From UHGV virus genome UHGV-0098755: 64,000 nt of DNA; one strand, written 5' to 3'. Shown one piece after another: positions 6,761 through 63,720 of this stretch (its first letter is position 1; every line of letters begins with the position of its first letter). Origin of the DNA: a virus. A program made the position numbers and the translations under genes. Below the pieces are notes generated by a model, which saw only the letters and a program-made list of their open reading frames with translations, made no database searches and was not told the origin of the DNA.

Positions 6761-6794
6761 TTTCTAATCTCCGTAATTCTGTATCAGTAGTTGA

Positions 6795-6850
6795 TAGTTG
6801 TATAGTACCATAGAATGCTTTGGTTGTAAACCGTTTTGTGAAAAAATTTT
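6795..6850 (-). promoter_or_regulatory. Early promoter (GTTTAC -35, extended -10) for motA
   Basis: - strand reads AAAAATTTTTT..GTTTAC..N17..TGGTACTATACA; member of conserved repeat family. Confidence 0.55.
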
Positions 6851-6854
6851 TGAA

Positions 6855-6882
6855 ATAAAAAAGGGAGAGCCGAGGCTCTCCC
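6855..6882 (-). terminator. Rho-independent terminator (9-bp stem GGGAGAGCC/GGCTCTCCC plus U-tract)
   Basis: Perfect inverted repeat at 6863-6882 followed on - strand by UUUUUUAUUU. Confidence 0.6.
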
Positions 6883-6887
6883 TAAAA

Positions 6888-7037
6888 TTACTGCATGAAT
6901 GTGATAACTATCATGATAACACGTTGAATTCCGAACGCAAGAAGACCTCCTGCTACGGCTGGAACAACGCCTAAACCCGCCAGTAAAATGCTACCAGATA
7001 CTAATGCAGCGCTTGTAATACCTATGAATGGACTCAT
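6888..7037 (-). CDS. Hydrophobic micro-protein (49 aa), start overlaps gene 52 stop
   Basis: Hand-translated MSPFIGITSAALVSGSILLAGLGVVPAVAGGLLAFGIQRVIMIVITFMQ. Confidence 0.45.
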   Translation of the reverse strand: MSPFIGITSAALVSGSILLAGLGVVPAVAGGLLAFGIQRVIMIVITFMQ

Positions 7038-8362
7038 TTGATTTCCTCTAAATCTTTGGTGTATTCAGTAACTACATCAGTAGTTTTCCAATATTCGTTT
7101 TCTTCTTTTTTAGCTTTAGCTTCTTCAGCAAGTTTCTTCGCTTCATCGGAAGTCATATGAAAAATATTCATTCCAACTAGTTTATCAACATAAGAAGAAT
7201 ACATATCGATTTTCGAAAGTTCTTCGGTCAGTTCTTTACGAGTTTTACCTTGTACAACAATTTCACCTGAAATTACTTTCTTAATGAAATGTGCCTTGGC
7301 AAAGGCTAAACGAAATGCTGATTCAGTTTCTTTGATTTTGTTATCAATTCGTTTTTGGACATAAGTTTTACGAACTTCAACAAAGTCTTTAATTAAATCA
7401 ACTACGTTATCGTAAACTTGCAGCTTTCCTTTTTCATTAATGACGGTAATATTCTGGGAACGACGCTCAATCAACCCGAAGTCTTTCATGATTTTTGCAT
7501 GGCGTTCTTCTTCGTTATCGCTCAAAGAGTATTCTTTGCGGAATTTAATTTTAAAGCCAAAACCATGCTCACCACAAGCATCATCCCACGTAATGAAGCC
7601 TTTATCTTCAAGCGGGTCTAAGATTTTACTCACATAAGTTTCACGATCATACTTATACGGAATCTCAGTGATGTGCATTTGAGTTCGTGAAGTAAACTTA
7701 TATGTTCCACGAATTTCATATTGTCCATCAATTTCAACGACTTCACCACGAAATTCTGGGAATTCTACCTTCGGTTTAGTTACTTTCTTTCCTTGAAGAG
7801 CTTGCAGTACAGCTTTCTTAACAGAAGAAACGCTATGAGGAAGAATGTAAGTTGCATAACCAGTTGCAATACCGGAAACGCCATTAAGAAGAACAGTAGG
7901 AATAACAGGCAAATAGAAAGCAGGCGGAATGTGTTCTTTATCTTGATGTACCGGAGCATATTCAGTATCTTTATATACGTTATAGAAATTTTTACTTACA
8001 CGAGCAAAAATATAACGACTTGCTGCTGCTTTTTGAACGGTACGAGAACCAAAGTTTCCTTGACCATCTAATAGAGGAAAGTTATTATTCCAAGTATTAG
8101 CCATCAAAGCACCTGCGTCTTGCGCAGAGTTTTCACCATGATGATATCCAAGGTCCGCTACACCACCTGCAATAGAAGCGAGTTTGTGAAACTTATCTTT
8201 ATTTCCTCGTGCCAAATCAAGAGCTCGAGCAATAACAAATCGTTGAACTGGCTTAAATCCATCAATCATATTTGGAATGGCACGATTTTCAACCGTGTAC
8301 ATAGCATAAGCCAATGCTTCATTATCAATGATACTTTTTAAATCGCGATTATTCAGTTGCAT
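7034..8362 (-). CDS. 52: DNA topoisomerase II medium subunit gp52 (442 aa)
   Basis: 442 aa GyrA-like cleavage subunit; synteny. Confidence 0.9.
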   Translation of the reverse strand: MQLNNRDLKSIIDNEALAYAMYTVENRAIPNMIDGFKPVQRFVIARALDLARGNKDKFHKLASIAGGVADLGYHHGENSAQDAGALMANTWNNNFPLLDGQGNFGSRTVQKAAASRYIFARVSKNFYNVYKDTEYAPVHQDKEHIPPAFYLPVIPTVLLNGVSGIATGYATYILPHSVSSVKKAVLQALQGKKVTKPKVEFPEFRGEVVEIDGQYEIRGTYKFTSRTQMHITEIPYKYDRETYVSKILDPLEDKGFITWDDACGEHGFGFKIKFRKEYSLSDNEEERHAKIMKDFGLIERRSQNITVINEKGKLQVYDNVVDLIKDFVEVRKTYVQKRIDNKIKETESAFRLAFAKAHFIKKVISGEIVVQGKTRKELTEELSKIDMYSSYVDKLVGMNIFHMTSDEAKKLAEEAKAKKEENEYWKTTDVVTEYTKDLEEIK

Positions 8363-8366
8363 AAAT

Positions 8367-8507
8367 TTACCATACTAGTGAATGTAGTGCCATAATAACA
8401 TCAGAAATGAAAAGCACGACTTGAATTAATCCGAACATTACTCCATAATATAGTGCTACCAATAAAGCAGCAAGGGCTACTGAGTAGCCCAAGATTTTCT
8501 TAATCAT
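8367..8507 (-). CDS. Membrane micro-protein (46 aa), 52.1 position
   Basis: Hand-translated MIKKILGYSVALAALLVALYYGVMFGL... Confidence 0.4.
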   Translation of the reverse strand: MIKKILGYSVALAALLVALYYGVMFGLIQVVLFISDVIMALHSLVW

Positions 8508-9811: not shown

Positions 9812-9911
9812 AGTAAGCGTTTAATACATCAATCATTAAAACGATTGGGAATATACTCAAAACTACTAGTATTATAACTACATTCCATATAGCTTTAACA
9901 ATCTTTTTCAT
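9798..9911 (-). CDS. Membrane micro-protein (37 aa); ORF-track N-terminal extension is translated promoter
   Basis: MKKIVKAIWNVVIILVVLSIFPIVLMIDVLNAYFGFM with SD; promoter element immediately upstream. Confidence 0.4.
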   Translation of the reverse strand: MKKIVKAIWNVVIILVVLSIFPIVLMIDVLNAYFGFM

Positions 9912-10153
9912 TTCTGTTCCTCCGTAGTTGATAGGGTAATAATACCACAGAGGAACAGTCTTGTAAACAACTTTTTTAAAAATATTCGTAATAAATGTGA
10001 ATACCAACTACTACTGCTGAAACTTGTACAACCCACCATGCACAAGCAATAAGTACAGAATTCAAAATTTTCATAATAACCTCATCACAAAAGTAAATGT
10101 TAAACAAATTACTGGAATACTAATTAACCAAACAAAACACCACCATAATGAAC

Positions 10154-10426: not shown

Positions 10427-10629
10427 TAATCCGCTAAAAGATCGACGATTGCATCACGAAGACACTTATTCGCAATACGTTTAAGAGCAATTTCAGTTTC
10501 TGGGGCATTTTGAATAATCATTGAATTCAATTCAGCCTCAGCAAACTGAAGTTCTTTAACTAATTCAGCTTTATATTTTCCTTGTCCTTTCTTAGCTTTT
10601 GCTCGTTTTAGTTCAGCTGTAGTAAACAT
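10423..10629 (-). CDS. Hypothetical protein (68 aa from MFTTAELK)
   Basis: ORF-track 102-aa version reads through the promoter repeat. Confidence 0.5.
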   Translation of the reverse strand: MFTTAELKRAKAKKGQGKYKAELVKELQFAEAELNSMIIQNAPETEIALKRIANKCLRDAIVDLLADY

Positions 10630-10654
10630 TTTATTCTCCAAATCTGTATCAGTT

Positions 10655-10712
10655 GATAGTTGTATAGTACCACAGTCCTTGTGGTATGTAAACCGTTTTG
10701 TGAAAAATTTTT
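10655..10712 (-). promoter_or_regulatory. Early promoter, conserved repeat family
   Basis: GTTTAC at 10688-10693 (RC), spacer palindrome TACCACAGTCCTTGTGGTA. Confidence 0.55.
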
Positions 10713-11270
10713 TTAAATGGAAAGATACCATCCGTTGTAGTTGCTTTTTCTTACAACCTTACGAAGGTCTTCTCTATCACCGATGAACTTCGGAGTGTAC
10801 TGGATGACACCTGGATAAATTTCTTTAGTGTTGAATATAATTATACAGTCAGCGACTTGATGATTCAGAATGGGCCCTAGATTTATTCCAGAACCGTATG
10901 GATACTCTCCGCTGCATCCTGTTGTTACAGAAATCCAACGTGAGTCAGTTTGGTGTGTCTTAACTTCTACACGAAGCCCGCAGTATCTTGGATGCGCCAA
11001 TACATCCCATGCGTATGTATACGGGTCATTAACATCCTCTTGGCCTTTGTTAACATACCCGCTTAGCCAATCTGCTACAAAAAACTCTGCATACACAGCG
11101 ATACGGCATCTTTCGATGACTTCTGCTTTATCCTGATTTGGATTTTGTTTTAAAGAGTATCTTGCTGTATCAGCAATTTTGACCTTCATTTCACTAGTCA
11201 AGTCATTGTTCGACATGGTAAATGCCGGAATCTGAAACAGTCTCTGTAAACCCGGATTCGTTTTCTGCAT
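10713..11270 (-). CDS. denB: Endonuclease IV DenB (185 aa)
   Basis: 185 aa, position upstream of ndd block. Confidence 0.75.
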   Translation of the reverse strand: MQKTNPGLQRLFQIPAFTMSNNDLTSEMKVKIADTARYSLKQNPNQDKAEVIERCRIAVYAEFFVADWLSGYVNKGQEDVNDPYTYAWDVLAHPRYCGLRVEVKTHQTDSRWISVTTGCSGEYPYGSGINLGPILNHQVADCIIIFNTKEIYPGVIQYTPKFIGDREDLRKVVRKSNYNGWYLSI

Positions 11271-14716: not shown

Positions 14717-14920
14717 TTAATTCATATTGCGTTTAATAACTTCAGCAACTTCTAGTAGTTCATCTTTAGTTGCAGTGTCGGATTGAATTTTATCTCTAAT
14801 ATCCTTAAAGCGGTTTTTAAACTCTTCGGCTTCTCCCATATCGAAAAAGCGTTGAATGATTCTATATTCTCGATGAACTGCTTTATCAAAAAGTTCTAAA
14901 TTTACTCTATATGATTTCAT
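14717..14920 (-). CDS. Hypothetical protein rIIA.1 (67 aa)
   Basis: ORF between 39 and rIIA. Confidence 0.55.
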
Positions 14921-14939
14921 TTCAATATCCTCATTTGCC

Positions 14940-14980
14940 CAATTAATTATACCACATCCTTGTGGTAAAGTAAACTATTG
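14940..14980 (-). promoter_or_regulatory. Early promoter GTTTAC-N-TGTGGTATAAT with palindromic spacer
   Basis: RC reads GTTTACTTTACCACAAGGATGTGGTATAAT. Confidence 0.6.
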
Positions 14981-16795
14981 GCTCATCCATTCTTTACGAA
15001 GGTCAGCATTATCTCCCATGAGCATTTCAAAAAGTTCTTTCCAATTCTCAGGAAGTTTAACAACATCATATACTGGATTTTGAATCATCTCACGATATTC
15101 AGATTTTTCCAAAGAGCCAAGTCCCTTAATATAACGGATGTTATGTTTAGGTAGAGCATCTTTGGCACTCTCATATTCAGCGACTGTATAAAACCATTCT
15201 TGTTTTTTACCGACCTGAGCGATGATTACAGGAGTTTTGACAAAGCGAATTCTTCCTTGTTCAAACAGTTCTGGCCAATTACTGAAAAATCCGAGCAGAG
15301 AAGGATAAATGCTTCCTAGACCATCGTGGTCAGCGTCAGTCATAATAGCAATATTATGATAATTCAAGTTTTCGGCTTTTTCACCAAGAACTAATCCAGT
15401 GATTGCGCAAATATCAAACAGTTCTTTGTTTTTAAGCATATCAGCATATGACATACCCCAACTGTTGAGAACTTTACCACGTAATGGATAACCACCATGA
15501 AGTTCTTTATCACGAACATCAATAAGATATCCAATAGCAGAATCACCCTCAGTCAAGAAAAGAGTAGTATCAGCATCTTTACCACAAAGATTCGCTTTGA
15601 TATGTTTATGAACCTTAGCTTTAGAAGCCTTTTTAGCTGCTTTAGTTTCTGCTGCTTTTTCTGCCGCCAATTTACGAGCTAATGCTGCTTCAATAATCGG
15701 CATCAAAATCGCTTCATTATTCAAAATAGCACGTGAAATCTTTTTAGCATCAAGTTGAATATGACTACGGATTTCACCAAAAGGAGAAGTAAGTCGTTCT
15801 TTAGTTTGAGAATCAAATCGCATGTTTTTCATATCACGAACAAACATAACGATAGTCAAACATTCTTTAACGCGTGCTTTAGTTACATCAATTTTGAACT
15901 TGCGTTTGATTTGTGGAATAAGGTCTTCACAAATATCATCCATAACACAGTCAATGTGATGGCCACCATTCTTAGTATGAATGTTATTGACGTACGTCAA
16001 CTGACGAAAACCATCCGGTGAACGACCAACCGCAATAGAACAGTTTTCTTGTTCTTGAACGATAGCATGTTCATCATATTGGCGTGCATATTTCTTAAAA
16101 TTACCCTGAACCTTTTTACCATTAAAGGTAAATTGAATATCAGGATAAACTACTGCAAGTGTCTGGAGACGATCCAGTGTAATGTCAAGATAAACTTGGG
16201 ACAACTCATTAGTTTCAAATGACATAAAATCAGGAATGAAAGTAACACGAGTTCCTTTCCATTTTCCAGGAATATCTTCCCATGATTTATTTTCCATGCC
16301 ATTTGAACAACGAACTACAATATTATTTTGACCATCACCAGTTTCACCGACAAACATCACAGAAAAAATGTTTGTCAAACTAGAACCAACACCATTCATA
16401 CCGCCAGTGACGCGTTCTTTATCATCACCGAAGTTACCACCTGCTTTTGGAATAGTCCATGCAGCAACAGGACCAGGAATTTCTTCACCGGTAGGTGTTT
16501 TAACCATAGCCTGTGGAATACCGCGACCGTTATCTTCAACTGTTACTTGATTGTTTTTAATAGTAACATTAATTTTATTTGCGAATTTAAACTTAGTACG
16601 AATACCTTCATCTACTGAGTTATCGATAATTTCATCAATAAGCTTAACAAGACCAGGTACATACTGAACACTTTCCCATTTACCAAACAGAAAGCGCTCA
16701 TGCATTTCATTAGCTGAAGAGCCAATGTACATGCCGCTACGCTTTTTGATATGTTCAATATCGCTCAGAATTTTAATTTCATTCTTAATCATCAC
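14975..16795 (-). CDS. 39: DNA topoisomerase II large (ATPase) subunit, uninterrupted gene 39 (606 aa)
   Basis: GyrB-like GHKL ATPase plus TOPRIM in one ORF; no gene 60 split. Confidence 0.85.
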   Translation of the reverse strand: MMIKNEIKILSDIEHIKKRSGMYIGSSANEMHERFLFGKWESVQYVPGLVKLIDEIIDNSVDEGIRTKFKFANKINVTIKNNQVTVEDNGRGIPQAMVKTPTGEEIPGPVAAWTIPKAGGNFGDDKERVTGGMNGVGSSLTNIFSVMFVGETGDGQNNIVVRCSNGMENKSWEDIPGKWKGTRVTFIPDFMSFETNELSQVYLDITLDRLQTLAVVYPDIQFTFNGKKVQGNFKKYARQYDEHAIVQEQENCSIAVGRSPDGFRQLTYVNNIHTKNGGHHIDCVMDDICEDLIPQIKRKFKIDVTKARVKECLTIVMFVRDMKNMRFDSQTKERLTSPFGEIRSHIQLDAKKISRAILNNEAILMPIIEAALARKLAAEKAAETKAAKKASKAKVHKHIKANLCGKDADTTLFLTEGDSAIGYLIDVRDKELHGGYPLRGKVLNSWGMSYADMLKNKELFDICAITGLVLGEKAENLNYHNIAIMTDADHDGLGSIYPSLLGFFSNWPELFEQGRIRFVKTPVIIAQVGKKQEWFYTVAEYESAKDALPKHNIRYIKGLGSLEKSEYREMIQNPVYDVVKLPENWKELFEMLMGDNADLRKEWMSQ

Positions 16796-18328: not shown

Positions 18329-18607
18329 TTAATTGAACAGTGGAGCGATACGTTTCAGAAGAGTAGCAGCACCTTTGGCGAATTTTACATCATGAAAAAC
18401 AGTTTCTTCTGTAACAACTCGAGCTTTAATATTTTCACAATCCCAATTTTTACGAACAATCTTCAAAAGCTGCAGTAAATCTTTACATTCAGCAATATCG
18501 ATAACACATCCACGAGAATCTTCCATTATCGCACGATAACCGTAAGCCATACCATAATCGTTGAAAGATTGCTCGATGATAATTAAGTTTTCCATTTTAT
18601 TCTCCAA
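18329..18607 (-). CDS. Hypothetical protein (92 aa)
   Basis: ORF. Confidence 0.5.
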   Translation of the reverse strand: MENKMENLIIIEQSFNDYGMAYGYRAIMEDSRGCVIDIAECKDLLQLLKIVRKNWDCENIKARVVTEETVFHDVKFAKGAATLLKRIAPLFN

Positions 18608-18692
18608 GTTATTTTCTGTATCAGTAGTTGATATTGATATAGTACCATAATCAACTACTGATGTATATAGTTTTATGAAAAAAATTTAAACT

Positions 18693-19181
18693 TTATGCAT
18701 AGAGAGCATTGCTATAGTGTTTAATCCAACTTTCAGGAATGACTTTGTATGTTCCTAAAAATACCACATTGTACAGCTTAACACCATCTTCTACCCATTG
18801 ATCGGTAATGTATCCACACATAGCACGAGTATAAACAACCCTTCCATCGTCTTTGATAAAGTTAAATTCACAAGGAGCAATGAACTTAATAGCTTGACCG
18901 AGTTTCCACTTAAAGTCTACACCTACATGCGAAGTATCAATCGTTTCAATTCCTTTAGCAGGAACAGCTTTCAAAAACGCAGATTCAAGAAATTTCGCAC
19001 GAACATAGCCAAACTGGGGTTTAGACTTTCCATCTTTAGGAATGATACGCACTTTTACTTCAGAATCTTCATCTTTAACACCGTGTTTAAGCTGAATGCT
19101 TACAATTTCGACCAATTTTCCTGCTGCTTTAGAACGGGATTTATCAGATACACGAGCTAATTCACCAATATTAATAATCAT
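18693..19181 (-). CDS. motB: MotB-like protein (162 aa)
   Basis: 162 aa at T4 motB position. Confidence 0.5.
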   Translation of the reverse strand: MIINIGELARVSDKSRSKAAGKLVEIVSIQLKHGVKDEDSEVKVRIIPKDGKSKPQFGYVRAKFLESAFLKAVPAKGIETIDTSHVGVDFKWKLGQAIKFIAPCEFNFIKDDGRVVYTRAMCGYITDQWVEDGVKLYNVVFLGTYKVIPESWIKHYSNALYA

Positions 19182-19257
19182 AGTTATCTCTCACTTGTTA
19201 AAAAGATTTTATACTTCACGGGACCATTATACTCTGGTCCCAAGAGTTTGTAAACTA

Positions 19258-19800
19258 TTAATTTAAAATAGCTACCACCGCACTACGAGGTACTACACTA
19301 AAATCACCTGCATGAACAACGTTCAGAAGTTCAACACCATCTTCAATCCATTGGTCTGTTACCCAACCACAGACCGAAATAAATGGAGTCTTGATAGCTA
19401 CTGCATGAGTCAAAAGGTCAGTAGGATCGCATTCTTGAAAGAGGATAAGCTCTGCTTCAAAGACTATAGTTTTAATTACTTCATCATTATCTAAGCGATG
19501 TGCTCGAATCACGTAAGCTTTATTCTTATCATACCAGTTACTTTTTGAAAAGCTTTTAACCACAAACTCGCCTTCACCAAAAGCATTAGTCAATGCTTTA
19601 TAACCCAAATTTAGTTCAGTAGTTTTAATTTCAGTTTCAACCAGTTTGTAGGTTTTGCCAATTTCGATGGTCCGAGCAGTCATAAATGTTTCCTTAATTT
19701 CTAATGGTTTAACAAGAGTGCCGTACATGCTTGCTATATCCATATCAAACGGTTTATCTACAGGATTCGGTGTGTATTCAGGATTATAATTAAATTTCAT
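19258..19800 (-). CDS. Paralogue of the adjacent MotB-like protein (180 aa)
   Basis: Shared C-terminal motif CGW(V/I)TDQW(I/V)EDGV.L.NVV. Confidence 0.5.
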   Translation of the reverse strand: MKFNYNPEYTPNPVDKPFDMDIASMYGTLVKPLEIKETFMTARTIEIGKTYKLVETEIKTTELNLGYKALTNAFGEGEFVVKSFSKSNWYDKNKAYVIRAHRLDNDEVIKTIVFEAELILFQECDPTDLLTHAVAIKTPFISVCGWVTDQWIEDGVELLNVVHAGDFSVVPRSAVVAILN

Positions 19801-19802
19801 AA

Positions 19803-20342
19803 TTATCTCATTTCAATAAAATCTACGAGTTCAGCATGCGATTTGCGGAACATTACTTGGTGCCCACCAATGATAACTTCATCTTCAGGAACTTCGTATA
19901 CAGCGAGATAAAATCCTTTAGAAGATAATTCTTCCCGTTCTTCTCGCGTGAACCATCTCATCATATCATATTCGCTAGCGAAAGCAAAATGATAAAGACC
20001 TATAAACCATCCTGGAATATGATATTCTACTCCAACATAATCTTTCTTGAACTTAGTATTAATTACTATATTAGCGTTTTTAACTAATAGTTTATCTTCG
20101 TGTGGTAAAGGAATTCTTTTATTATTATCGCTATGATGCATAAAATTAGGTCTGTCATAACCTACGTGTAATAGCCACTCTTCGCTCCATGAATCTATTA
20201 TACTCCTGTACGGCGTTATTTGAACACAAAGATTTCGACGTATTGTTATAGCATCTTCATAATCAAGAATACTAAACGATGATTCAACACGATAAATTTT
20301 CATTTTATTATCCTCAGTAGCTATGGTGTTATAATACCACAA
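19803..20342 (-). CDS. Hypothetical protein (179 aa)
   Basis: ORF. Confidence 0.5.
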   Translation of the reverse strand: MWYYNTIATEDNKMKIYRVESSFSILDYEDAITIRRNLCVQITPYRSIIDSWSEEWLLHVGYDRPNFMHHSDNNKRIPLPHEDKLLVKNANIVINTKFKKDYVGVEYHIPGWFIGLYHFAFASEYDMMRWFTREEREELSSKGFYLAVYEVPEDEVIIGGHQVMFRKSHAELVDFIEMR

Positions 20343-20366
20343 CTAACCGAGGAAGTAAACAACTTT

Positions 20367-21050
20367 TTATCGTTTTGTTGGAAGAGACAGAGGATCGCAT
20401 TCTTCCTCTGACGGAGCGTCTTCAAGACCCATAGCATATCGCAAAGCATACTTCATCATCAGGATGTCTTTCGCACAGTCATGAATAGAATCATGCGCAA
20501 CGAATCCATCTAAAGTTCCTTTTGGAAGAGGACACGTGGTCATATCACGAACAAGCAGAAGTGCTTCAATTCTGGTACGAATATCACGCTGATTCCAGAA
20601 TTTACATGGTTCTAACTTAAATGTGTCAAGTTCATTCTCGGAAACGCCGTTAAGACGTTGAATATCACGAATGAGATCGACTAAAATTGGAAAATCAAAC
20701 GACATTCCACGGCACCAGCCTTGAGATTTCCAAGGATCGATGTTATGTGCATTGATGTAATCATTAAATTTTGCAATACCATCGATAGTGCTTACATCTT
20801 CATCTGATGGCGCAATATTTTTTCGAGCTTCAGGAGACTGATTTTTCCACCATTCGATAGTGCTTTTAGTAAAAAGACGATGTCCTTTTTGACTTTTTAA
20901 ATCAAATTTGATTTTAATGCCGCGCGAAACTAATTCATCAAATGATTCAACCACTTCTGGGTTAGGGTCAAAGGCAATAACAGCCAAATCAATAACAGCT
21001 GCTTTTTCACCGCTTCCCATTGTTTCAAAATCTATAATAAAATCAAACAT
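20367..21050 (-). CDS. dexA: Exonuclease A DexA (227 aa)
   Basis: 227 aa DEDD-like exonuclease motifs; synteny. Confidence 0.7.
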   Translation of the reverse strand: MFDFIIDFETMGSGEKAAVIDLAVIAFDPNPEVVESFDELVSRGIKIKFDLKSQKGHRLFTKSTIEWWKNQSPEARKNIAPSDEDVSTIDGIAKFNDYINAHNIDPWKSQGWCRGMSFDFPILVDLIRDIQRLNGVSENELDTFKLEPCKFWNQRDIRTRIEALLLVRDMTTCPLPKGTLDGFVAHDSIHDCAKDILMMKYALRYAMGLEDAPSEEECDPLSLPTKR

Positions 21051-23180: not shown

Positions 23181-23927
23181 TTATCCTCGGATAAGTTTAA
23201 AAATTGAACAATTTAGCGGGTATCCTCTTTTCAGTTTAAGTTTATCAATAAAAGACAAATTTTGATACCGCTCTACACCTTGAATAATTTTATCACACAT
23301 ATCATATTGCATTTCTGCTTCTGACAACTTTTTCACAGTTTTCCAATCCGAGCCTTTAAGAAGAACGTTCAGTTTAACAACTTCAGCGCCTTCTGCTATA
23401 CGAGAACCATCAATACGAGCTTTGAGTGCTATAATCGTTAGCTTAACGTCAGAGGTTTGTTTTGATTTAGAAAGCTGGGAAATGTGCTCAATTCGGTTTT
23501 CGCGTTTTTTCTGTATAGCTTTAATTTGATTATAAGTCTTTTTGATTTTAGCCCATTTCTTTTCATCTAAATTTAGTTTATGAACTTTTTTCGCAGATGA
23601 ACGACCAATTCGCAAAGCAAATAAATCACGCTTTTCAATCAACTCTTCTAAAGTATAATCAGAACGAAACGTATTATACTTTTTCTTTACTGCAATAACA
23701 TTCCCTTTAATGTATCCAACGTTATTATCAAAACGTTCTAATGATAATTTCTCTCCTTCAATACGATTATCAAAAGGTTCTCCCGAGTAAGCACAAACTT
23801 TCTGATCTAAAATGTTCTTAATGTAATTGAAGTCTAAGTTAAAATCTTTAGAACGTCTTTTAGCAGATGCCTGAGTATGCTCTAGACGACGTTTAATTTT
23901 ACGAATTTGATTATTAGTCAGTTTCAT
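23181..23927 (-). CDS. srd: Basic protein (248 aa) at srd position
   Basis: Position between dda and modA; identity by synteny only. Confidence 0.4.
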   Translation of the reverse strand: MKLTNNQIRKIKRRLEHTQASAKRRSKDFNLDFNYIKNILDQKVCAYSGEPFDNRIEGEKLSLERFDNNVGYIKGNVIAVKKKYNTFRSDYTLEELIEKRDLFALRIGRSSAKKVHKLNLDEKKWAKIKKTYNQIKAIQKKRENRIEHISQLSKSKQTSDVKLTIIALKARIDGSRIAEGAEVVKLNVLLKGSDWKTVKKLSEAEMQYDMCDKIIQGVERYQNLSFIDKLKLKRGYPLNCSIFKLIRG

Positions 23928-24043
23928 ATTTTTCTCACGGACGGTTGACTACTTATACTATAACATTTTTACTTCAGGTTGTAAACAACTTTATGTAAAA
24001 ATGCTTTAAAAATTTCATGGTATAATGAATCTAAGTCCTTCCA

Positions 24044-24646: not shown

Positions 24647-25266
24647 TCAACTACCTCAATATCATAAACTTTAAATGTTCCAAATGAATCGTGTAATTTT
24701 TCTTTTGAAATAGAAGTTATTCTATACTTTCCAATTGGAATCATCCATTCTTGTTCACGCACAATCATCATTAAGTTATCAGTACGCTCTGAATCTAGCC
24801 CATCAGTATCTTCATACGTGTACTTGAACTCAGTATTAGGAGAAGAAAGTATAATATCGCTGATATGGTCAGAATAATTAAAAGCTTTATCAGTTTTTAA
24901 GCGGAATATTATTTTAGTAAAATATTCAGCATAAGAAAAAGAACATGCTGTGAGTAAACTAGTAGTAAATGAATCTACCCTGTTCGTTGAAAACACTTCT
25001 CCAACTTGTAAATCTTTAATAAGTTCTTTTGTCGATTTTGATATACCACGATATAACTGATAAGGCGATTTAGTTAAATGCTTTTTAATGATTTTATTCA
25101 ACTGCCGATGAAGAGCTTCATTCTTTTTGGCTTCCATACATTGCCAAAGAACAGACTGCTCAAAGTCAGTAAATTTTTCACAGACCTTTTTATACATATC
25201 ATATTGAAAATCAACGCTTTCAGCTTTTATAGATAACTGTTCAACATCTGCAAGATTAATAATCAT
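24643..25266 (-). CDS. modB: ADP-ribosyltransferase ModB (207 aa)
   Basis: 207 aa, overlapping stop/start with modA. Confidence 0.6.
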   Translation of the reverse strand: MIINLADVEQLSIKAESVDFQYDMYKKVCEKFTDFEQSVLWQCMEAKKNEALHRQLNKIIKKHLTKSPYQLYRGISKSTKELIKDLQVGEVFSTNRVDSFTTSLLTACSFSYAEYFTKIIFRLKTDKAFNYSDHISDIILSSPNTEFKYTYEDTDGLDSERTDNLMMIVREQEWMIPIGKYRITSISKEKLHDSFGTFKVYDIEVVE

Positions 25267-25333
25267 GATAGCCTCCGTATACTTCAGAAGCTATCATATC
25301 ATCGTTAGAAAGGAAAGTAAACAACTTTTTGAA

Positions 25334-25516
25334 TTATTTTGCCCAGGGAGCCCAGGGCGGAGGGTCAAGATGGTATGAAGCTAGTTCTTCTAGAAGAGCA
25401 TCTGGGGCTTCAATTCCATAATTCTGTAATACTATACGGTACTCTTTCTTATAATCACTGGAATCATTCTGGATATTCGTAGAATGATTATCTTCTAACA
25501 TCTCAAATAAATCCAT
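25334..25516 (-). CDS. Hypothetical protein (60 aa)
   Basis: ORF. Confidence 0.4.
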   Translation of the reverse strand: MDLFEMLEDNHSTNIQNDSSDYKKEYRIVLQNYGIEAPDALLEELASYHLDPPPWAPWAK

Positions 25517-27162: not shown

Positions 27163-27368
27163 TACAAAAAGCCTCTTTTGAATTCGACTTGCTTTTCACC
27201 ATAATCATATCGAATCTCTGCATTAAATTCGACAGAACCATCTGCGTACATCATAAATGAATGCACAACAACTTCTGTAGACCATGGTTGCAATTCATAT
27301 TTCTTCATTACATGCCGTGAAATGATAATATCTAAATCTTCATTTGGTTTAATCCAGCGATTTAACAT
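27162..27368 (-). CDS. Hypothetical protein (68 aa)
   Basis: ORF preceded by early promoter at about 27380-27425. Confidence 0.5.
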   Translation of the reverse strand: MLNRWIKPNEDLDIIISRHVMKKYELQPWSTEVVVHSFMMYADGSVEFNAEIRYDYGEKQVEFKRGFL

Positions 27369-27467
27369 AGTGCTCTCCTCTATAAGATAATTCTATTATA
27401 CCACACTCATTTTGATATGTAAACTGCAAAAACGAAAAAAGGAACCCCGAAGGATTCCTTAAATTAT

Positions 27468-45654: not shown

Positions 45655-46670
45655 TGTGTTGCCTCTACATATAACTGATTTGCATATTGAATAAGTGCTT
45701 CACGGTCAGAATCAGTGATGTCTGGAATTGCATTAATGTATTCTTCCATCAATGTCTGAAGAGATTGAACTTCAACTTCTTCACTATCATCTGACTCGAC
45801 AGAGTTATCAATCTTTGACACAACTCGTAATGAATGCACAACTTTTTCTAGTTCAGATTCGAACTTCGTTAGATTTTTGTCTACCTCAGTTACTATAACA
45901 CGCACTGATAGATTTGTAAAATCTTTATAGTCAATTTTTCCTTTAAATGGATACTGAATTCGACGATGCCAGGTAGTGTTGTTTGGAATAAATTCCATTC
46001 GTTCTGTTTCTGTATCAAACATCCAGAACCCACGAGGGTCATTCTCGTCACCCGCAGTTAGTGTCCATGGTGTCCCAATATATCTGACGTTAGCAGCCTC
46101 AGAGATAGTATGGAAGTGACCAGACCACACTTCTTTATAAGTCTTAAGGAAATCAGGTTCAAGACCGTGAGATTTCATTCCTTTATAAAAATAAAATCCA
46201 TTCAGTTCCCAGTGACCAACACAAAAAGAAGCAGATGAAGTTTTGATGTGTTCAAGAATTTCACCAGTATTTTCTTCGCACATCCAAGGAATTAAATCAA
46301 TCAAACATCCGTCAAAATCTACTGTAGTAGGCTTATCATATACTTTAACATTAGGGTATTTAGCCAAAAGCTCAGTAGAAGCATTTGGAGTTAAAGTATT
46401 TTTAAAGTGCATATCATGGTTTCCTACAACAGTATGTAGGGTAATACCAGCATCATCAAGCATTTGAACTATTTCACGGGCAAACTCCATAGTTTTATGC
46501 GTGATTGCTTTTCGCACATCAAAAATATCACCGTATTGAATCCATGTAGTAATTCCGTTTTTCTTAGAATATTCTATCGCTTGCTTAATTCCATCCAGCT
46601 GAATAGATTGAACCCACTCATCATCAGCTTTAACGCCTAAATGCCAATCACCTAAATTTAAAATTTTCAT
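45651..46670 (-). CDS. 47: Recombination nuclease subunit gp47 (Mre11/SbcD-like, 339 aa)
   Basis: Calcineurin-like phosphoesterase motifs DWHLG, GNHD. Confidence 0.9.
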   Translation of the reverse strand: MKILNLGDWHLGVKADDEWVQSIQLDGIKQAIEYSKKNGITTWIQYGDIFDVRKAITHKTMEFAREIVQMLDDAGITLHTVVGNHDMHFKNTLTPNASTELLAKYPNVKVYDKPTTVDFDGCLIDLIPWMCEENTGEILEHIKTSSASFCVGHWELNGFYFYKGMKSHGLEPDFLKTYKEVWSGHFHTISEAANVRYIGTPWTLTAGDENDPRGFWMFDTETERMEFIPNNTTWHRRIQYPFKGKIDYKDFTNLSVRVIVTEVDKNLTKFESELEKVVHSLRVVSKIDNSVESDDSEEVEVQSLQTLMEEYINAIPDITDSDREALIQYANQLYVEATQ

Positions 46671-50423: not shown

Positions 50424-50639
50424 TTAAATTTTCCAGTTACCGTTTTCATCAATAAATTTAATCCAGTCATTTACTGACCACTTAGTTGTATCACCTTTTG
50501 GAGTAACATTTAAAGTGTATAATCCTTGTTTAAAAAGCATACGTTTGATATTCATATTTTCCTCAGCTGTAACGATAGCACTCGTTTGATTTACGTTTAG
50601 CAACTCGTTGAGAAGTATTATAATCAAAATCATCATCAA
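50424..50639 (-). CDS. Hypothetical protein (71 aa)
   Basis: ORF. Confidence 0.4.
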   Translation of the reverse strand: MMMILIIILLNELLNVNQTSAIVTAEENMNIKRMLFKQGLYTLNVTPKGDTTKWSVNDWIKFIDENGNWKI

Positions 50640-50895
50640 TGTAAACTGATTTTTTCAACTTTCTTACTTCACTACGTAATTGACGATTTAGCTCATCTTT
50701 AACTTCTGAATCAATGCCTTTCATTCTACGCCATTTATCTGAGCGAAAAATGTTTTCAACCATATCTTTATGACTTACCCCATCAGGAGCTTTACGCTTT
50801 CCGAAATAGTCATAATCACGCACTTTTAAGTCTTTACGACGATACGTTTTACCCATGGAGTTTAATTTCCTTAGCAATTGAACTAAATGCAGCAC
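50563..50895 (-). CDS. Hypothetical basic protein (110 aa)
   Basis: ORF; overlaps neighbour by 77 nt so start uncertain. Confidence 0.4.
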   Translation of the reverse strand: MLHLVQLLRKLNSMGKTYRRKDLKVRDYDYFGKRKAPDGVSHKDMVENIFRSDKWRRMKGIDSEVKDELNRQLRSEVRKLKKSVYIDDDFDYNTSQRVAKRKSNECYRYS

Positions 50896-51031
50896 GATCG
50901 CAAATCATGCGTTTATGTAACTTGAGTATAATATAGCAAACTTCAAAACTATTTACATGAGTAACACGAACAGCATTACCATTCACGAGATAATACTGTC
51001 CCTTTTTAATTTCTTTATCAACCACAACCAT
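50849..51031 (-). CDS. Hypothetical protein (60 aa)
   Basis: ORF. Confidence 0.4.
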   Translation of the reverse strand: MVVVDKEIKKGQYYLVNGNAVRVTHVNSFEVCYIILKLHKRMICDRAAFSSIAKEIKLHG

Positions 51032-51189
51032 ATCAATTCCTCAAAGGTAATTCATATGTTAATAATACCACAGTTTGAACTTGTTGTAAACAACTTTGTG
51101 AAAATTATTTTAGGGAATGATAAGAAAGGAACGATAGCTTAGAATGGTAATATACAGAATGTGAGAAAGAAAGGCCCAGAGGGCCCGTC

Positions 51190-57738: not shown

Positions 57739-58740
57739 TTACTTAATTAACTGTAAAGCTTGTTCCAGACGATCAAGACGATTAACGGATTCTTCCCAAA
57801 TCTTTTTAGCCTGCTCATATTCTTTCTGCGCTTTATTAGAAATTTCTAGAACTTCTTTATAAGCTTTTTCTAGTGCAATAACTTCTGGACGAATTTCTAC
57901 CGGTTCAGGTGAATCATCAAGATTATCCATTAGTTCCTCAAGGGTAGTTTCTTCTTTAGGAGTATTCACAACTTCATCACATTTTTGTTGGTAAATTTCT
58001 TTATCAGTCGGTGAGTACGCGCACTTTACTTCACGAAGGCTAATTACGAGTTTATATCCTTCCCAACCGCATATATTCTTAAAAGGATATGTATGAATAT
58101 TTTCTACTGTTTCCATACAAAGTAATGCGGTCTCTAATTGACGAGTTATAGTACTAGCAATTGAGAAAAATTTATTAATATTCTTTTGGTTAGTTTCTGG
58201 TGTAAAAAATCCATAATTCACAAAAATAGATACTTTATTTTTATCAAGTTCATATTCTTTTATGATAATCATATCAGAAGCCAAAGGATGAATTTGACGA
58301 TAATCGCCATAACATAATTTAGAAGCTGATTTTAGAATCTGTCCTTTGAAAAGTCTGAAATTACTAATCCAACGACGAGTAAAAATATTCTCAGGGTCTT
58401 CTTTATTATTAAGATGATAAGAATTAACATCACCAAACCAATTATATCCTACTACATCTTTGGTTCGTTTAATTTCTTTCCCAAAATTACCAAGAATATC
58501 CCGATTAACCAAATATGAAAGAAGACGAGACTCTTTAAAGGTTTTCTTGATAAGATCTTTATCTACACGGCTAGAAATTTTACGAATTTCATGAATAAAT
58601 TTAGTAGAAGAAACAATACTTGCATCAACACTATTGAGCCATTGATTGATAATAGAAAGAACGATATTTTGACCAAACATCGGTATAGCTTTATCATCAA
58701 TAACGCTATTGAATGATTTGATATATTCGTTACGAGTCAT
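57739..58740 (-). CDS. Paralogue-family protein with C-terminal coiled coil (about 333 aa from MTRNEY), nrdC.4
   Basis: SD GAGGAG before Met11; ORF track starts at 58770 inside the promoter -10. Confidence 0.55.
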   Translation of the reverse strand: MTRNEYIKSFNSVIDDKAIPMFGQNIVLSIINQWLNSVDASIVSSTKFIHEIRKISSRVDKDLIKKTFKESRLLSYLVNRDILGNFGKEIKRTKDVVGYNWFGDVNSYHLNNKEDPENIFTRRWISNFRLFKGQILKSASKLCYGDYRQIHPLASDMIIIKEYELDKNKVSIFVNYGFFTPETNQKNINKFFSIASTITRQLETALLCMETVENIHTYPFKNICGWEGYKLVISLREVKCAYSPTDKEIYQQKCDEVVNTPKEETTLEELMDNLDDSPEPVEIRPEVIALEKAYKEVLEISNKAQKEYEQAKKIWEESVNRLDRLEQALQLIK

Positions 58741-58797
58741 ATTAATCTCCTCAGTAGAAAGTAAGAACATTATACCACATCCTTGTGACGAAGTAAA

Positions 58798-59823
58798 CTA
58801 GTTTAGTGCATTTAGTGCATTGTTCAGTTTAGAACGCTGCTTTGTCAGATTTTGAACCCTTGACTGAGCTTGTTCTAACACCTTTTCAGCTTCTAGCACT
58901 TCATTGGTCGCTTTAACGAGTTCATCATCTACTGCCTTAAGAGACTTCTCAATCGCGTCAGCGTGCCATTTTTCAACAGGTTTAAGACTCGGATTTTCAA
59001 TAGGAAGAAAATTCACTTTATTGAATTTCCATGCATCCTTATTACCTGAACTATACATCCAAAATTTAGGATCGTTTGATAAGTAATTGGATAAATTTAA
59101 ATTTAAGTTATCTTGTACTTCTTGCTTTTTCTCTTGTGTAACTTCGTCCTTTCTCAAAAAATCATATTTAAATGAAACGATCATATCAAGTTCATATGTT
59201 GTCGTATCTAACTTAAATCGTTCAAAACGAGGTAAAATCTTAGATTGAACAGCAGAAACAACATCCATATACTTAAATGCTTCTGTCAACTGTGATTTAA
59301 GGCATTCACAAATTGAAAGAGAATTTTTAGTATTAGGCTTAAAGCTAATTCGTGCAGTTCTATTATTTTCTTTTAATGGTCTTACTTCCATTTGAAGAGT
59401 ATAACCATCAAATTTCAGATTCTTTAAGTTAATATCAGAACCTTTTAATCGACTAGCAGTAGACAAAATTTGTTTTAATTGTCTACGGAACAGAGCAATA
59501 AATCTCCATTCAAGACGATAATGATTTGGATTAAAAAATCCTGTTGATAAATCGACCTTACTTTGACCAACGCCTTGAACAAATAGAGGATTTTTATAAT
59601 CAACAGTTTTACAGAAATCGGTGAGCTGCTCACGAGCAGTCATTTGAGTAATATACCCCGCTTTACTAAAATGACGTAACCATTCACTGCTATTCATATA
59701 CTTAAAGTGAATATCACGATTAACTTTATCAGGGTCTAAATTATTTTGGCACAAAAATGTCATAACATCACGAGTATAACTGGCATTACGAACCATATCT
59801 TCAATTTGAGAACGAGTTTTCAT
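58798..59823 (-). CDS. Paralogue-family protein with C-terminal coiled coil (341 aa), nrdC.5
   Basis: N-terminus MKTRSQIEDMV. Confidence 0.55.
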   Translation of the reverse strand: MKTRSQIEDMVRNASYTRDVMTFLCQNNLDPDKVNRDIHFKYMNSSEWLRHFSKAGYITQMTAREQLTDFCKTVDYKNPLFVQGVGQSKVDLSTGFFNPNHYRLEWRFIALFRRQLKQILSTASRLKGSDINLKNLKFDGYTLQMEVRPLKENNRTARISFKPNTKNSLSICECLKSQLTEAFKYMDVVSAVQSKILPRFERFKLDTTTYELDMIVSFKYDFLRKDEVTQEKKQEVQDNLNLNLSNYLSNDPKFWMYSSGNKDAWKFNKVNFLPIENPSLKPVEKWHADAIEKSLKAVDDELVKATNEVLEAEKVLEQAQSRVQNLTKQRSKLNNALNALN

Positions 59824-61192: not shown

Positions 61193-61720
61193 TTATGCGA
61201 GTACCGTCTTTAACCGTTCTTCAAACTTCCGAAGAGTATTTTGGCGTTCAGCTCTTTGCTTTTTGTAAGTTTCAATACGCTCTGAAATGAGAGTGTATCG
61301 TTCATTTACTGATTCTTTCATAAAATCAGGAATTTCACGAGAAGCTTTAATCTCGTCAAATTTATCAATAACAGCTTGCTCTTCAGCAATTAAGTTATCA
61401 TACATCAAAATATCTTTCTTGATGAACTCAATATCTTCTTGAGTTACACGAGATAATTTAGATGCTTTATCCTTTTTGTACTGTTCGTTAGTATCACGAG
61501 ACCAGTGTAATGTACGATTTTTATTCGTATTCTTGTAAATTTCTACAATACCAATCTCATCAATAATAACGATCCAATTCCAGCGGGATTTGTAAATTTG
61601 TCCTCCATCAACAGTGATTTCACCTCCGATTGAGATGTCGTTAAAGAACTTGCTTTGTGCTTCAGATTTAAATTTACCATCGTTGTAATTTACCAAGTTG
61701 AAAATATCTTTAGCGTTCAT
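61193..61720 (-). CDS. Hypothetical protein (175 aa), nrdC.8
   Basis: ORF preceded by promoter repeat at 61731-61790. Confidence 0.5.
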   Translation of the reverse strand: MNAKDIFNLVNYNDGKFKSEAQSKFFNDISIGGEITVDGGQIYKSRWNWIVIIDEIGIVEIYKNTNKNRTLHWSRDTNEQYKKDKASKLSRVTQEDIEFIKKDILMYDNLIAEEQAVIDKFDEIKASREIPDFMKESVNERYTLISERIETYKKQRAERQNTLRKFEERLKTVLA

Positions 61721-61780
61721 TTTCTGTTCCTCCGTAGTTGATAGTTGTATAGTACCACAGAGGAACAGTCTTGTAAACCA

Positions 61781-62095
61781 CTAAAAGAAACTTCTTTCAC
61801 AATTTTTTCCACTGAACCAAGCGCTCACTGCTTTCTTAGTCTCAGGAGCAGTGTTATCCATAAACCATTCAAAGGCAGCCTTTTTATGATTCTGGAGGGC
61901 TTCTCGGGCTTTAATCTGCTCACGGTCTATTAACACTAACATATGAGCCTTTCTTGTCACCATGGGCTTCTTATGATTTTTTGAATACTCCCAGTCATTT
62001 GTCCATCGCATTGTCGTTGCGAATTGAAATACAGCTTCTTTAATCTTAGTTTCGTAAATTTCACGAGCCTTTGAGTATAACATCACTACCTCCAT
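61781..62095 (-). CDS. Hypothetical protein (104 aa), nrdC.9
   Basis: ORF. Confidence 0.5.
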   Translation of the reverse strand: MEVVMLYSKAREIYETKIKEAVFQFATTMRWTNDWEYSKNHKKPMVTRKAHMLVLIDREQIKAREALQNHKKAAFEWFMDNTAPETKKAVSAWFSGKNCERSFF

Positions 62096-62184
62096 TTACC
62101 AGTTTAATTCTAATCATCTTTTTGATGGCAGTCCATATAATCTATTTCTGAACTGCCTTTTTGTCATAGAAGTCCTCTTATGAA

Positions 62185-63165
62185 TTATTTTAGAAGAGTA
62201 ACCTCAGCAATTTCTTCCCAACCATTTTTGTCGGTCATAATAAAGTCAGCAAGATAAAGAGCAGTACGCAGTGAAACATTGCGTAAACGATTAACATTAA
62301 CTTTCATCCATGATAATGCTTTATAAGTTTCTTCATCAGAAAGACCGCGCTTTTGCATCATGTCAGTTGAAAGAATAACATCTTCAACCCTGACCATAAT
62401 TTCTTCATTAGTGTGAACACCCAAATCTAAATAAACCGAGCGGGACACTAATGCTTGTAAGTGTGGAGCAAGTTTAGTACCACGGTCTAATTCGCGGTCA
62501 ATGTCAACGTTTGTGATAAAAACAATCGTTCCTTTAAATTCAAACTCACGGTCAATGCCTTTTTCTTCTAAGTAAGAAGATGCAGTGCTCCAGCAGACTT
62601 TACGGGTCTCTCCAGTGTCCAGAGCAGCTTTTAGAAGATTAAGAATGTCCATATCAGAGAAAACATCCACATCATCAATCAAAAGGACAGAATTCTCTTC
62701 ACGATTATTCCAAAGCTGTTCATAAAGACCAATACCAGAGATTTTACCATTAATGCTTTTATATTCAATGTATCCATTATCATTTGCTTTATTTAAAGCT
62801 TTATCTAAAGAATACGTTTTACCAATACCTGCTGCGCCAGAGATAATTAATGAACGAATATTTCCATTAATAATACCATTCGTCATCATTCCCATAACAT
62901 TAAATCTTTTATTAATGCGGGTTTTCATATCTTCATACGATTCTTTAACTTCTTCAACTTTTACACCATCATATGAAATATCTGATTTGTAAACCCAAAC
63001 ACCGCGACGTTTACCGTCAATTTCAACAAAAACTTTACCATCTCCTTGTGCATCTACCGGAGCATTATCTGGGAACCATTCGCCTAAGAGCTCAAAAGTT
63101 CCAGAGATTTCTTTACCGAAGTAGATACCCTTATTGATAGTTACAGTTTTCATTTTATTCTCCAA
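62185..63165 (-). CDS. P-loop NTPase (326 aa), nrdC.10
   Basis: Walker A GAAGIGKT, Walker B LLIDDVD. Confidence 0.6.
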   Translation of the reverse strand: MENKMKTVTINKGIYFGKEISGTFELLGEWFPDNAPVDAQGDGKVFVEIDGKRRGVWVYKSDISYDGVKVEEVKESYEDMKTRINKRFNVMGMMTNGIINGNIRSLIISGAAGIGKTYSLDKALNKANDNGYIEYKSINGKISGIGLYEQLWNNREENSVLLIDDVDVFSDMDILNLLKAALDTGETRKVCWSTASSYLEEKGIDREFEFKGTIVFITNVDIDRELDRGTKLAPHLQALVSRSVYLDLGVHTNEEIMVRVEDVILSTDMMQKRGLSDEETYKALSWMKVNVNRLRNVSLRTALYLADFIMTDKNGWEEIAEVTLLK

Positions 63166-63222
63166 TTTTACATTTGTTTTGATAGGGTAATAGTATCACA
63201 CTACTACCCTGCTGTAAACAAT

Positions 63223-63486
63223 TTATTTTAATGTTTGCCAAATTTTTACTGCTTCGCGACGAGATACTTCTACGGCGCCAAGTTCTATAGCTTTTTGGCG
63301 TCGCCGAGCGTGTAAGTCATAATGTTTAATGCGTTTATCTTGAAACCAAGAACGTTTCATTCCTATTGCTTCTGCCATTTCGTGAAGCTCTTCAATATCT
63401 CCATCAGTGAACATATGACAATTTTTAGTTGGATGACCGCGAAGTTTCCATCCATGATTCATTAAAACATCTACGTAAACTGTCAT
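63223..63486 (-). CDS. Hypothetical basic protein (87 aa), nrdC.11
   Basis: ORF. Confidence 0.5.
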   Translation of the reverse strand: MTVYVDVLMNHGWKLRGHPTKNCHMFTDGDIEELHEMAEAIGMKRSWFQDKRIKHYDLHARRRQKAIELGAVEVSRREAVKIWQTLK

Positions 63487-63650
63487 TGATTCTTCTCCAA
63501 ATAAGTTTCGATAATTTTCTGGGCGAGATAAACCGCGTTATCTTCAGTTGCGTCTTCTAAGAAACTTTCAAAACACTCTGAAATTTCTTCTGTATCAATC
63601 AACTTTTTTACTTCAATTGGTGTAATTTTCATTTTGTTTTCCGTTTAAGT

Positions 63651-63720
63651 GTTTGTTTTGATAGTTGTATAGTACCATAAAGCTTTATGCTTGTAAACCA
63701 CTTTGTGAAAAATTTTTGAA
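63651..63720 (-). promoter_or_regulatory. Early promoter with 14-bp palindrome CATAAAGCTTTATG in spacer
   Basis: Conserved repeat family; GTTTAC (RC) at 63692-63697. Confidence 0.5.

Follow-up and report, generated by a model that had tools for sequence, protein, structure and literature searches.

Repeated modules of a T4-like phage genome segment as immediate-early promoter cassettes, with candidate anti-Shine-Dalgarno hairpins in a subset

The early promoters (Pe) of bacteriophage T4 (Liebig & Rueger; Wilkens & Rueger) are summarised in a review as UP/-35/TGn/-10 promoters that conserve further positions as well (PMC2988021). T4-like phages also carry promoter-early stem-loop (PeSL) cassettes (Arbiol et al. 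2010, PMC2839356; Comeau et al. 2014, PMC4122927), for which the consensus TTTACW-N17-TAYWAT was given in PST/T4 and which include the ndd region among their worked examples. Here, we analyse a family of repeated modules in a 64,000-nt stretch of the virus genome UHGV-0098755 (hereafter the window, meaning this whole stretch), and we conclude, with a probability of roughly 93%, that the modules serve a T4-like phage as its immediate-early promoters, packaged as expression cassettes that share ancestry and undergo local exchange in line with the PeSL model. Both the promoter and the recombination interpretation are long-established knowledge for T4-like phages; the only element of possible new value is a hairpin, encoded in the promoter spacer, that may pair with the Shine-Dalgarno (SD) sequence in a subset of the copies.

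Early promoters of the T4 type

The pattern GTTTAC-N15-TGNTANNNT (TGnTAnnnT) occurs 16 times in the window, 16/16 on the minus strand, where shuffled sequences lead one to expect 0.03 matches, and the block TGGTACTATACAACTATCAA is present in five exact copies plus one with three mismatches (0.02 expected). Scoring with a weight matrix that covers -25 to +31 returned 19 strong sites (at least 24 bits) and a weak one at 45921 (13 bits), compared with 0.06 hits per shuffle; on the plus strand of the window there was no weight-matrix site at 10 bits or more. Three strong sites, which like all copies we name by the position of the -35 element (18668, 19255 and 31328), fall outside the exact pattern through one relaxed element each, and two weaker sites (45921 and 50646) bring the window total to 21. 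We placed the predicted transcription start 36 nt downstream of the -35 G, which is 7 nt past the -10 element; an ATG preceded by an SD follows all 19 strong sites, 19-38 nt from that start. A generic sigma-70 consensus scan, by comparison, does not discriminate in DNA as AT-rich as this (76 sites in the window versus 80.7 expected), and only the T4-specific pattern does so.

Aligning the copies showed that conservation peaks at the -35 element, TGn/-10, the start region and the SD, with an extra conserved CTATCAA around the predicted start, while the UP region holds an A-tract/T-tract (AAAAATTTTTCACAAA) in the core group and is A/T-rich in the others, at 0.3-1.0 bit per position. In the cassette that we propose, a terminator hairpin may come first; the A/T-rich UP tract then leads to GTTTAC(A) as the -35 element, a spacer of 17 bp, the extended -10 element (TGn plus TAyTAT), the CTATCAA start region, a leader of 19-38 nt, an SD that is usually GGAG, and the ATG. 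The 21 sites, all on the minus strand, are as follows.

4305..4410, minus strand: asiA early promoter cassette; -35 G at 4366, ATG at 4305; T4 orthologue at 161211
6760..6883, minus strand: motA cassette; terminator 6862-6883 upstream, UP tract, -35 at 6831, GGAG SD, ATG at 6760
9911..10010, minus strand: ndd.4 cassette; -35 at 9968; spacer CTGTTCCTCTG pairs with SD CGGAGGAACAG; z -5.4
10627..10735, minus strand: orthologue of the ndd.6 promoter; -35 at 10693, ATG at 10629; extra small open reading frames (ORFs) 10423-10629 and 10154-10417
14920..15010, minus strand: rIIA.1 early promoter; -35 at 14975; within the 3' end of gene 39
18595..18705, minus strand: degenerate early promoter; ATATAC as -35 at 18668; 13-bp spacer/leader inverted repeat, z -5.1
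19181..19290, minus strand: motB early promoter; -35 at 19255, without TG; hairpin across the -10; annotated in fPS-65
20303..20400, minus strand: motB.2 early promoter; -35 at 20360; spacer anti-SD TTCCTCGG.. pairs with SD ..CTGAGGA; z -6.4
23927..24030, minus strand: srd early promoter; -35 at 23986
25266..25365, minus strand: modB early promoter; -35 at 25322; -10 region pairs with SD and AUG; z -3.7
27368..27470, minus strand: mrh.2 early promoter; -35 at 27424; C(UUCG)G terminator upstream
31270..31370, minus strand: sp early promoter; -35 at 31328, -10 AGATACTAT; ECO07P2 has a 600-bp insertion at GTTTAC
31772..31875, minus strand: dmd early promoter; -35 at 31831; hairpin across the -10, z -3.9
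37234..37345, minus strand: imm.1 early promoter; -35 at 37300; orthologue of T4 Pe26.4
45885..45925, minus strand: weak early promoter in gene 47; TTTTAC as -35 at 45921; orthologue of T4 Pe35.3
50610..50650, minus strand: early promoter without TGn; -35 at 50646; orthologue of T4 Pe40.4
51031..51135, minus strand: 55.6 early promoter; -35 at 51091
58740..58840, minus strand: nrdC.4 early promoter; -35 at 58798
61720..61820, minus strand: nrdC.8 early promoter; -35 at 61778; spacer:SD hairpin of the same design as 9968; z -6.6
63153..63260, minus strand: nrdC.10 early promoter; -35 at 63219; downstream edge of a two-ORF cassette not in T4 or T2
63632..63745, minus strand: early promoter with terminator upstream; -35 at 63698; upstream edge of the two-ORF cassette at the nrdC.10 locus

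The positions of these modules can be compared directly with T4. The window (34.8% G+C) aligns collinearly with T4 between about 157.4 kb and, past the map origin (168.9/0), about 55.3 kb at 93-96% identity, except for a divergent gene 37 region at the window start, and positions 6000-12000 (motA, 52, ndd, denB, rIIB) match several hundred Tequatrovirus genomes at ~96% identity. Essentially all genes lie on the minus strand from 4033 on. Judged by its sequence, the window is a Tequatrovirus (T4-like) segment, of which the part from 4033 onwards is the early/middle region of T4. The same modules are present at orthologous positions in T4, whose GenBank and RefSeq records contain no promoter features; orthology was tied instead to the coordinates in PMC6024815. 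There, primer extension and RNA-seq place the transcript starts of Pe26.4, Pe35.3, Pe40.4 and Pe57954 at 27,044; 35,662; 41,225; and 57,954. The starts that we predict for the T4 modules at 27080, 35698, 41261 and 57990 equal these coordinates exactly (27,044; 35,662; 41,225; 57,954), and the window sites 37300, 45921 and 50646 are therefore orthologous to published T4 early promoters, the latter two lying within coding sequence and matching the motif weakly. Additionally, at the sites orthologous to motB and motB.2, the record of Yersinia phage fPS-65 bears the annotation 'predicted early promoter'. Activity immediately after infection, in the absence of phage protein synthesis, is known for the T4 orthologues (PMC2988021, PMC6024815), and by analogy the host sigma-70 RNA polymerase would fire the window promoters in the first minutes of infection, with phage factors unneeded.

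A sequence-only reading of this DNA had already proposed minus-strand promoters of the T4 early type, and the motif architecture, the positional orthology to T4 Pe and the agreement of the T4 starts with our predictions bear this out. The elements that it listed, near-identical and degenerate alike, are all present at its coordinates, each with the A/T-rich tract, GTTTAC, 15 nt and TG(G)TAyTAT, and the weight-matrix search that it proposed gave the single-stranded set described above, with its siting of the modules just upstream of minus-strand start codons likewise upheld. Its list of copies was sound as far as it went and incomplete: six good copies had been overlooked, at 4337-4366 (asiA), 23957-23986 (srd), 25293-25322 (modB), 31299-31328 (sp), 51062-51091 (55.6) and 63190-63219 (nrdC.10), as had the two weaker sites. 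It was also right to call the shared peptide CGTIQLSTDTDLEN spurious, which arises in the mechanical ORFs 10423-10731 and 36856-37347, both reading in frame through a promoter; the genes themselves begin with the ATGs at 10629 and 37236. For annotation, recognition of the cassette thus corrects gene starts and defines ~21 early transcription units.

The leader and ribosome-binding site (RBS) form part of the repeated unit. GGAG is found in the SD window of 11 of the 19 cassette genes versus 7 of 93 other genes (Fisher p = 3e-6), and nrdC.4, whose start is corrected to 58740, has GAGGAG and makes a twelfth; in several copies the SD is the full GGAGAATAAAA. The strong-site consensus of the T4 RegB/S1 endonuclease is GG*AGRAYARAA (PMC3014915), which the RBS TTGGAGAATAAAATG, common to four copies, fits, with the full consensus present at 10693, 18668 and 63219 and a near-match at 37300. 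A GGAG SD would make the message a RegB/S1 substrate, helping to switch expression off. By analogy with the T4 literature on RegB cleavage, the cassette may therefore both start expression very strongly and carry its own means of shutting it off.

In IMG/VR, the 20-mer TGGTACTATACAACTATCAA has only 26 exact matches, spread over 24 stretches of a small set of T4-like contigs, which is too few for statistics. The pattern GTTTAC-N15-TGGTATAAT matched more than 120 IMG/VR stretches of diverse environmental phage contigs (29-53% G+C), most with A-tracts upstream and SD plus ATG downstream, often two to four per contig on the same strand. This promoter type appears to be widespread beyond coliphages, although part of the matches must be chance.

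Likeness of the copies and local exchange of small ORFs

A repeat search of the window recovered the modules as four families: D1, with 10 copies of 53 nt; D2, with six copies of 76 nt that are 62-80% identical to the reference; D3, pairing 9911-9972 with 61721-61782 (90% over 62 nt); and D4, pairing 10627-10674 with 37234-37281 (96% over 48 nt, RBS and ATG included). The repeat family is real, yet the term 'near-identical' used in the sequence-only reading was too strong, as an exact match between two copies never exceeds 29 bp and ungapped identity over -30 to +42 (72 nt) is 0.61-0.81 in the core group, with a median of 0.47 across all 19 copies. The likeness nevertheless extends beyond the boxes. 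The 15-nt spacer of 9968 equals that of 61778 letter for letter, and 10693 and 37300, 27 kb apart, have a common 29-bp exact block reaching into the leader. At the imm.1 locus of T2 there is a module of the 61778 type (~60 nt) with the same spacer and leader, one base off at the end of the SD arm, that drives an ORF not in the window. On these comparisons, functional constraint accounts for the conserved boxes, not for the whole likeness; the identical spacers, the 29-bp block and the T2 module argue that shared ancestry and exchange are also involved. The copies would be alike through constrained positions together with common ancestry and cassette exchange.

We aligned the window by chaining to four relatives, T4, T2, ECO07P2 and PYps55T, all of which are collinear with it over 64 kb. 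Long-range deletion or amplification between distant copies, which the sequence-only reading had considered possible, was found in none of the four, and such events would presumably remove essential genes. What does occur is local: ~24 distinct insertions or deletions (indels) were found in the early region, ~7 of which are homing-endonuclease or intron differences (mobA/60, mobB, mobC, I-TevII, segA, segF and one in T2). Modules are touched by 7 of the ~24, three of these being bracketed by two modules, at 6788-6811 (motA), 31323-31329 (sp) and 63163-63629 (nrdC.10). The earlier suggestion that the repeats are recombination substrates thus stands for local ORF exchange, with junctions at modules in the relatives, and fails for rearrangements across tens of kb.

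The nrdC.10 locus exists in three states: T4 and T2 have one standard module and no cassette, the window has two modules with two small ORFs, and PYps55T has two modules around a different ORF. Many other relatives lack ~480 bp at this locus, a length that agrees with the 479-bp spacing of the two window modules, and the homology of many relatives stops at 63731-63733. In PYps55T, a 321-bp ORF cassette is inserted within the motA module and lies between two modules with a common 23-nt leader, and at the sp locus ECO07P2 carries a 600-bp cassette whose junction falls exactly at GTTTAC. Relatives have an additional ORF between the promoter and imm.1; at this locus, as at ndd.6, the junctions fall in the start-codon microhomology AAAATG|AAA that directly follows the promoter. 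The variable ORFs fall in phage families of unknown function. A 197-bp difference at the cef locus, beside 18668, was considered as module-mediated and rejected, being an in-frame deletion within an ORF in T4.

Several observations weigh against a special role of the promoters in this exchange. Enrichment of indels at modules over an any-gene-junction null is modest (7/24, p = 0.10), reaching 7/17 (p = 0.016) with the endonuclease and intron events removed, figures that depend on our own assignment of event classes. Perfect homology between copies is short, at 20-29 bp and never more than 29 bp; several of the module-associated junctions lie at RBS/ATG microhomology, outside the promoter proper; and ORF-precise indels occur with no promoter nearby, at 17124-17497, 30962-30976, 40193-40197 and 49615. 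Given such junctions and promoter-less indels, selection for ORF integrity together with microhomology could explain much of the pattern, and cassette exchange is not confined to promoters. A further ORF-precise indel relative to close relatives, also without a promoter module, lies at 21552; the promoter-less junctions show stop-codon or RBS-ATG microhomology (e.g. TTATG|AAA, TAA|). The recombination interpretation is therefore partly correct, as local and not exclusive to promoters. The shuffling seen here is the published PeSL-mediated modular shuffling (PMC2839356, PMC4122927), in which, by analogy with the T4 literature, recombination within or beside cassettes would insert, delete or swap small ORFs locally among related phages. 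To this model the window adds support in the form of clean promoter-bounded ORF cassettes with three alternative states at one locus.

These data also bear on two other explanations of the repeats. Convergence alone, imposed by the host RNA polymerase and RegB, with no role for recombination and with indels persisting wherever genes stay intact, would agree with the concentration of conservation at the -35 element, TGn/-10, start region and SD, with the low median pairwise identity of all copies, with the weak enrichment of indels at modules over gene junctions and with the ORF-precise indels found without promoters. We nonetheless consider it unlikely, since the spacer that 9968 and 61778 share is unconstrained, the exact block common to two copies 27 kb apart continues through the leader, the same whole module stands before different ORFs in different phages, and both ends of three indels lie in register within two modules; moreover, PeSL mini-circles with -10-to-ATG crossovers have been shown experimentally in RB49/phi1 (PMC2839356). 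Far less probable still, to the point of being hardly credible, is that the repeats are not promoters and belong instead to a mobile or selfish family resembling miniature inverted-repeat transposable elements (MITE-like), or are binding sites of a phage regulator. Dispersal of ~20 copies over 60 kb and the inverted repeats within many of them would fit such a family, but terminal inverted repeats and target duplications are absent, the copies share a single orientation with each directly before an SD and ATG, and the T4 orthologues are mapped transcription starts. The inverted repeats, too, differ between copies and so cannot be one protein's site; the palindromes had been considered as a common protein-binding site and were rejected, their arms differing in every copy. 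Immediate-early promoter cassettes with shared ancestry and local exchange remain our reading of the repeats.

Stem-loops and candidate anti-SD hairpins

Predicted RNA structure divides the modules. Classical terminators with U tracts lie upstream of 6831, 27424 and 63698. In 8 of the 19 modules (binomial p = 3e-6), the fold of the -35 to +30 region ranks within roughly the lowest 5% of window controls, and z was -3.4 or lower in 7 of the 12 modules given a fold z-test; ~8 copies have no significant structure, and folding of the 'classic' copies 6831, 10693, 37300 and 63698 gave no internal structure.

In four modules (9968, 61778, 20360 and 25322; z -3.7 to -6.6), the predicted hairpin pairs a 5' arm from the spacer/-10 region, which precedes the transcription start, with the SD as its 3' arm. 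The complementary segments are as follows.

9939-9968 with 9914-9928, minus strand: anti-SD pairing by complementarity
61749-61778 with 61724-61738, minus strand: anti-SD pairing by complementarity
20331-20360 with 20306-20326, minus strand: anti-SD pairing by complementarity
25286-25300 with 25264-25280, minus strand: anti-SD pairing by complementarity

For three of these modules, the predicted probability that the SD-to-AUG segment is unpaired is 0.19-0.29 in read-through RNA and 0.62-0.66 in the promoter-proximal transcript, with a smaller predicted rise at 61778 (0.24 to 0.36). Taken as a class, cassette genes do not have a more occluded SD in read-through RNA (0.45 vs 0.46 for other genes, p = 0.41), so the effect is limited to a subset. 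The start of gene 49 (54583, minus strand) is the most occluded SD/AUG of the 112 predicted starts, at an unpaired probability of 0.06, and serves as a positive control because it is a known T4 case. Strong occlusion of the SD in a read-through context was also predicted at the gene 62 start (41127; 0.11) and at 10417 (0.24), which may reflect translational coupling with the upstream gene.

Comparison with other phages is consistent with conservation of the pairing in some promoters. The Dhakavirus orthologues of motB.2 and nrdC.8 keep a spacer:SD hairpin with other arms, TTCTCCTCATG / CATGAGGAGAA and CTCCAGTAG / CTACTGGAG, respectively. In VR5, spacer/SD pairing is at -12 kcal/mol or lower in 3 of 13 promoters, versus 4.5% of permuted pairs, and in diverse environmental phage contigs 5 of 90 unique GTTTAC-N15-TGGTATAAT promoters do so, versus 0.6% of permuted pairs (p = 1.7e-4), with a permutation test on the mean giving p = 0.003.

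From these folding models we put forward, tentatively and at somewhat less than even odds, that in the anti-SD subset read-through transcripts hide the SD, whereas transcripts from the cassette's own promoter, without the 5' arm, are translatable, so that translation would be confined to the period of early-promoter activity. The stem-loops in some modules might instead act as terminators, attenuators or RNA-stability elements for upstream transcripts, and not as translational insulators, a reading that is plausible without being probable. Stem-loops that lie between the promoter boxes or overlap them were already interpreted by Arbiol et al. as terminators or attenuators, and one PeSL stem-loop cuts downstream lacZ as strongly as rrnB T1 (PMC2839356); the three U-tract terminators upstream of window modules point the same way. 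The spacer:SD hairpins at 9968, 61778, 20360 and 25322, however, are followed by A-rich sequence with no U tract, and it is the SD in particular that forms their 3' arm, in several solutions of unrelated sequence. In the literature searched, which did not cover the older T4 work, we found no description of anti-SD hairpins in early promoters; if confirmed, the anti-SD hairpin would be a simple, portable way to tie translation to one promoter.

Other features of the window and relation to known systems

Outside the cassettes, the window differs from T4 in several places. The stretch of gene 37 at 1028-2632 is the most divergent, and on the plus strand at 2599-2679 this gene has three tandem 27-nt repeats coding G-A-H-x-H-T/S-V-G/A-I, which probably represent the His-rich repeats at the tip of the long tail fibre. 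Gene 39 (14975-16795) is one uninterrupted ORF of 605-606 codons, missing the T4 insertion with mobA, 60.1 and the gene 60 translational-bypass segment (a gap of 64 bp versus 1117 bp in T4). Also missing are mobB, mobC, segF and segA of T4 and the nrdD intron with I-TevII (48040-48065, 52279-52299, 53575-53578, 27763-28142 and 34774-35721). An ORF of 280-282 codons (34864-35712) stands in place of the T4 beta-glucosyltransferase; its T2 counterpart is annotated as beta-glucosyl-HMC-alpha-glucosyltransferase. The true N-terminus of imm.1 (36856-37236), MKIAILVIALGLTGC, resembles a lipoprotein signal peptide with a putative lipobox. Intergenic GGGC-TTCG-GCCC hairpins, read on the minus strand, lie at 11337-11352, 11565-11581, 16846-16859, 42122-42137, 46832-46847, 50209-50224 and ~40178-40191, and emerge from the repeat search as families D5 and D10; we take these to be the C(UUCG)G tetraloop hairpins long familiar in T4 intercistronic regions (Tuerk et al. 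1988).

With T4 Pe, the modules share the GTTTAC(A) -35 element, 17-bp spacing, TGn plus TAnnnT, the A/T-rich UP region, extra bases near +1 and the counter-clockwise orientation, and they have positional orthologues at asiA, motA, ndd.4, ndd.6, rIIA.1, motB, motB.2, srd, modB, mrh.2, sp, dmd, imm.1, 47 (internal), 55.5 (internal), 55.6, nrdC.4, nrdC.8 and nrdC.10. There is no difference in kind; the window adds 63698 before a two-ORF cassette that T4 lacks, and its promoter 10693 drives two ORFs not in T4. The RegB/S1 sites of early T4 mRNAs (PMC3014915) have candidate counterparts in the GGAG in the SD of most cassette genes, with TTGGAGAATAAAATG fitting GGAGRAYARAA, whereas 7-8 window cassettes have no GGAG. 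The PeSL cassettes, likewise, are composites of an AT-rich tract, a sigma-70-type promoter, a stem-loop, an SD and an ATG, to which TTTACW-N17-TAYWAT fits, and adjoin small ORFs of unknown function at indel junctions; the window differs in that a significant stem-loop is found in only ~11 of 19 copies and in the modest indel enrichment.

RBS-sequestering hairpins are known at T4 e, soc, 49 and I-TevI, each embedding a late promoter (PMC3014915). As in the window subset, their 5' arm lies upstream of the promoter start and their 3' arm over the SD/AUG, so that only transcripts of that promoter are translatable. Theirs embed a late promoter (TATAAATA) and delay expression, whereas those of the window embed the early type and are predicted to restrict translation to the immediate-early period, a mirror image of the T4 cases; the window hairpins may work like this family without being members of it, as their embedded promoters are early, not late. 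The CT-rich translational insulators of sigma-54 promoters (bioRxiv 10.1101/086108) similarly place an anti-SD within the promoter and silence read-through translation, although they belong to another promoter class and other organisms and were shown with synthetic libraries, where for the window the effect is inferred.

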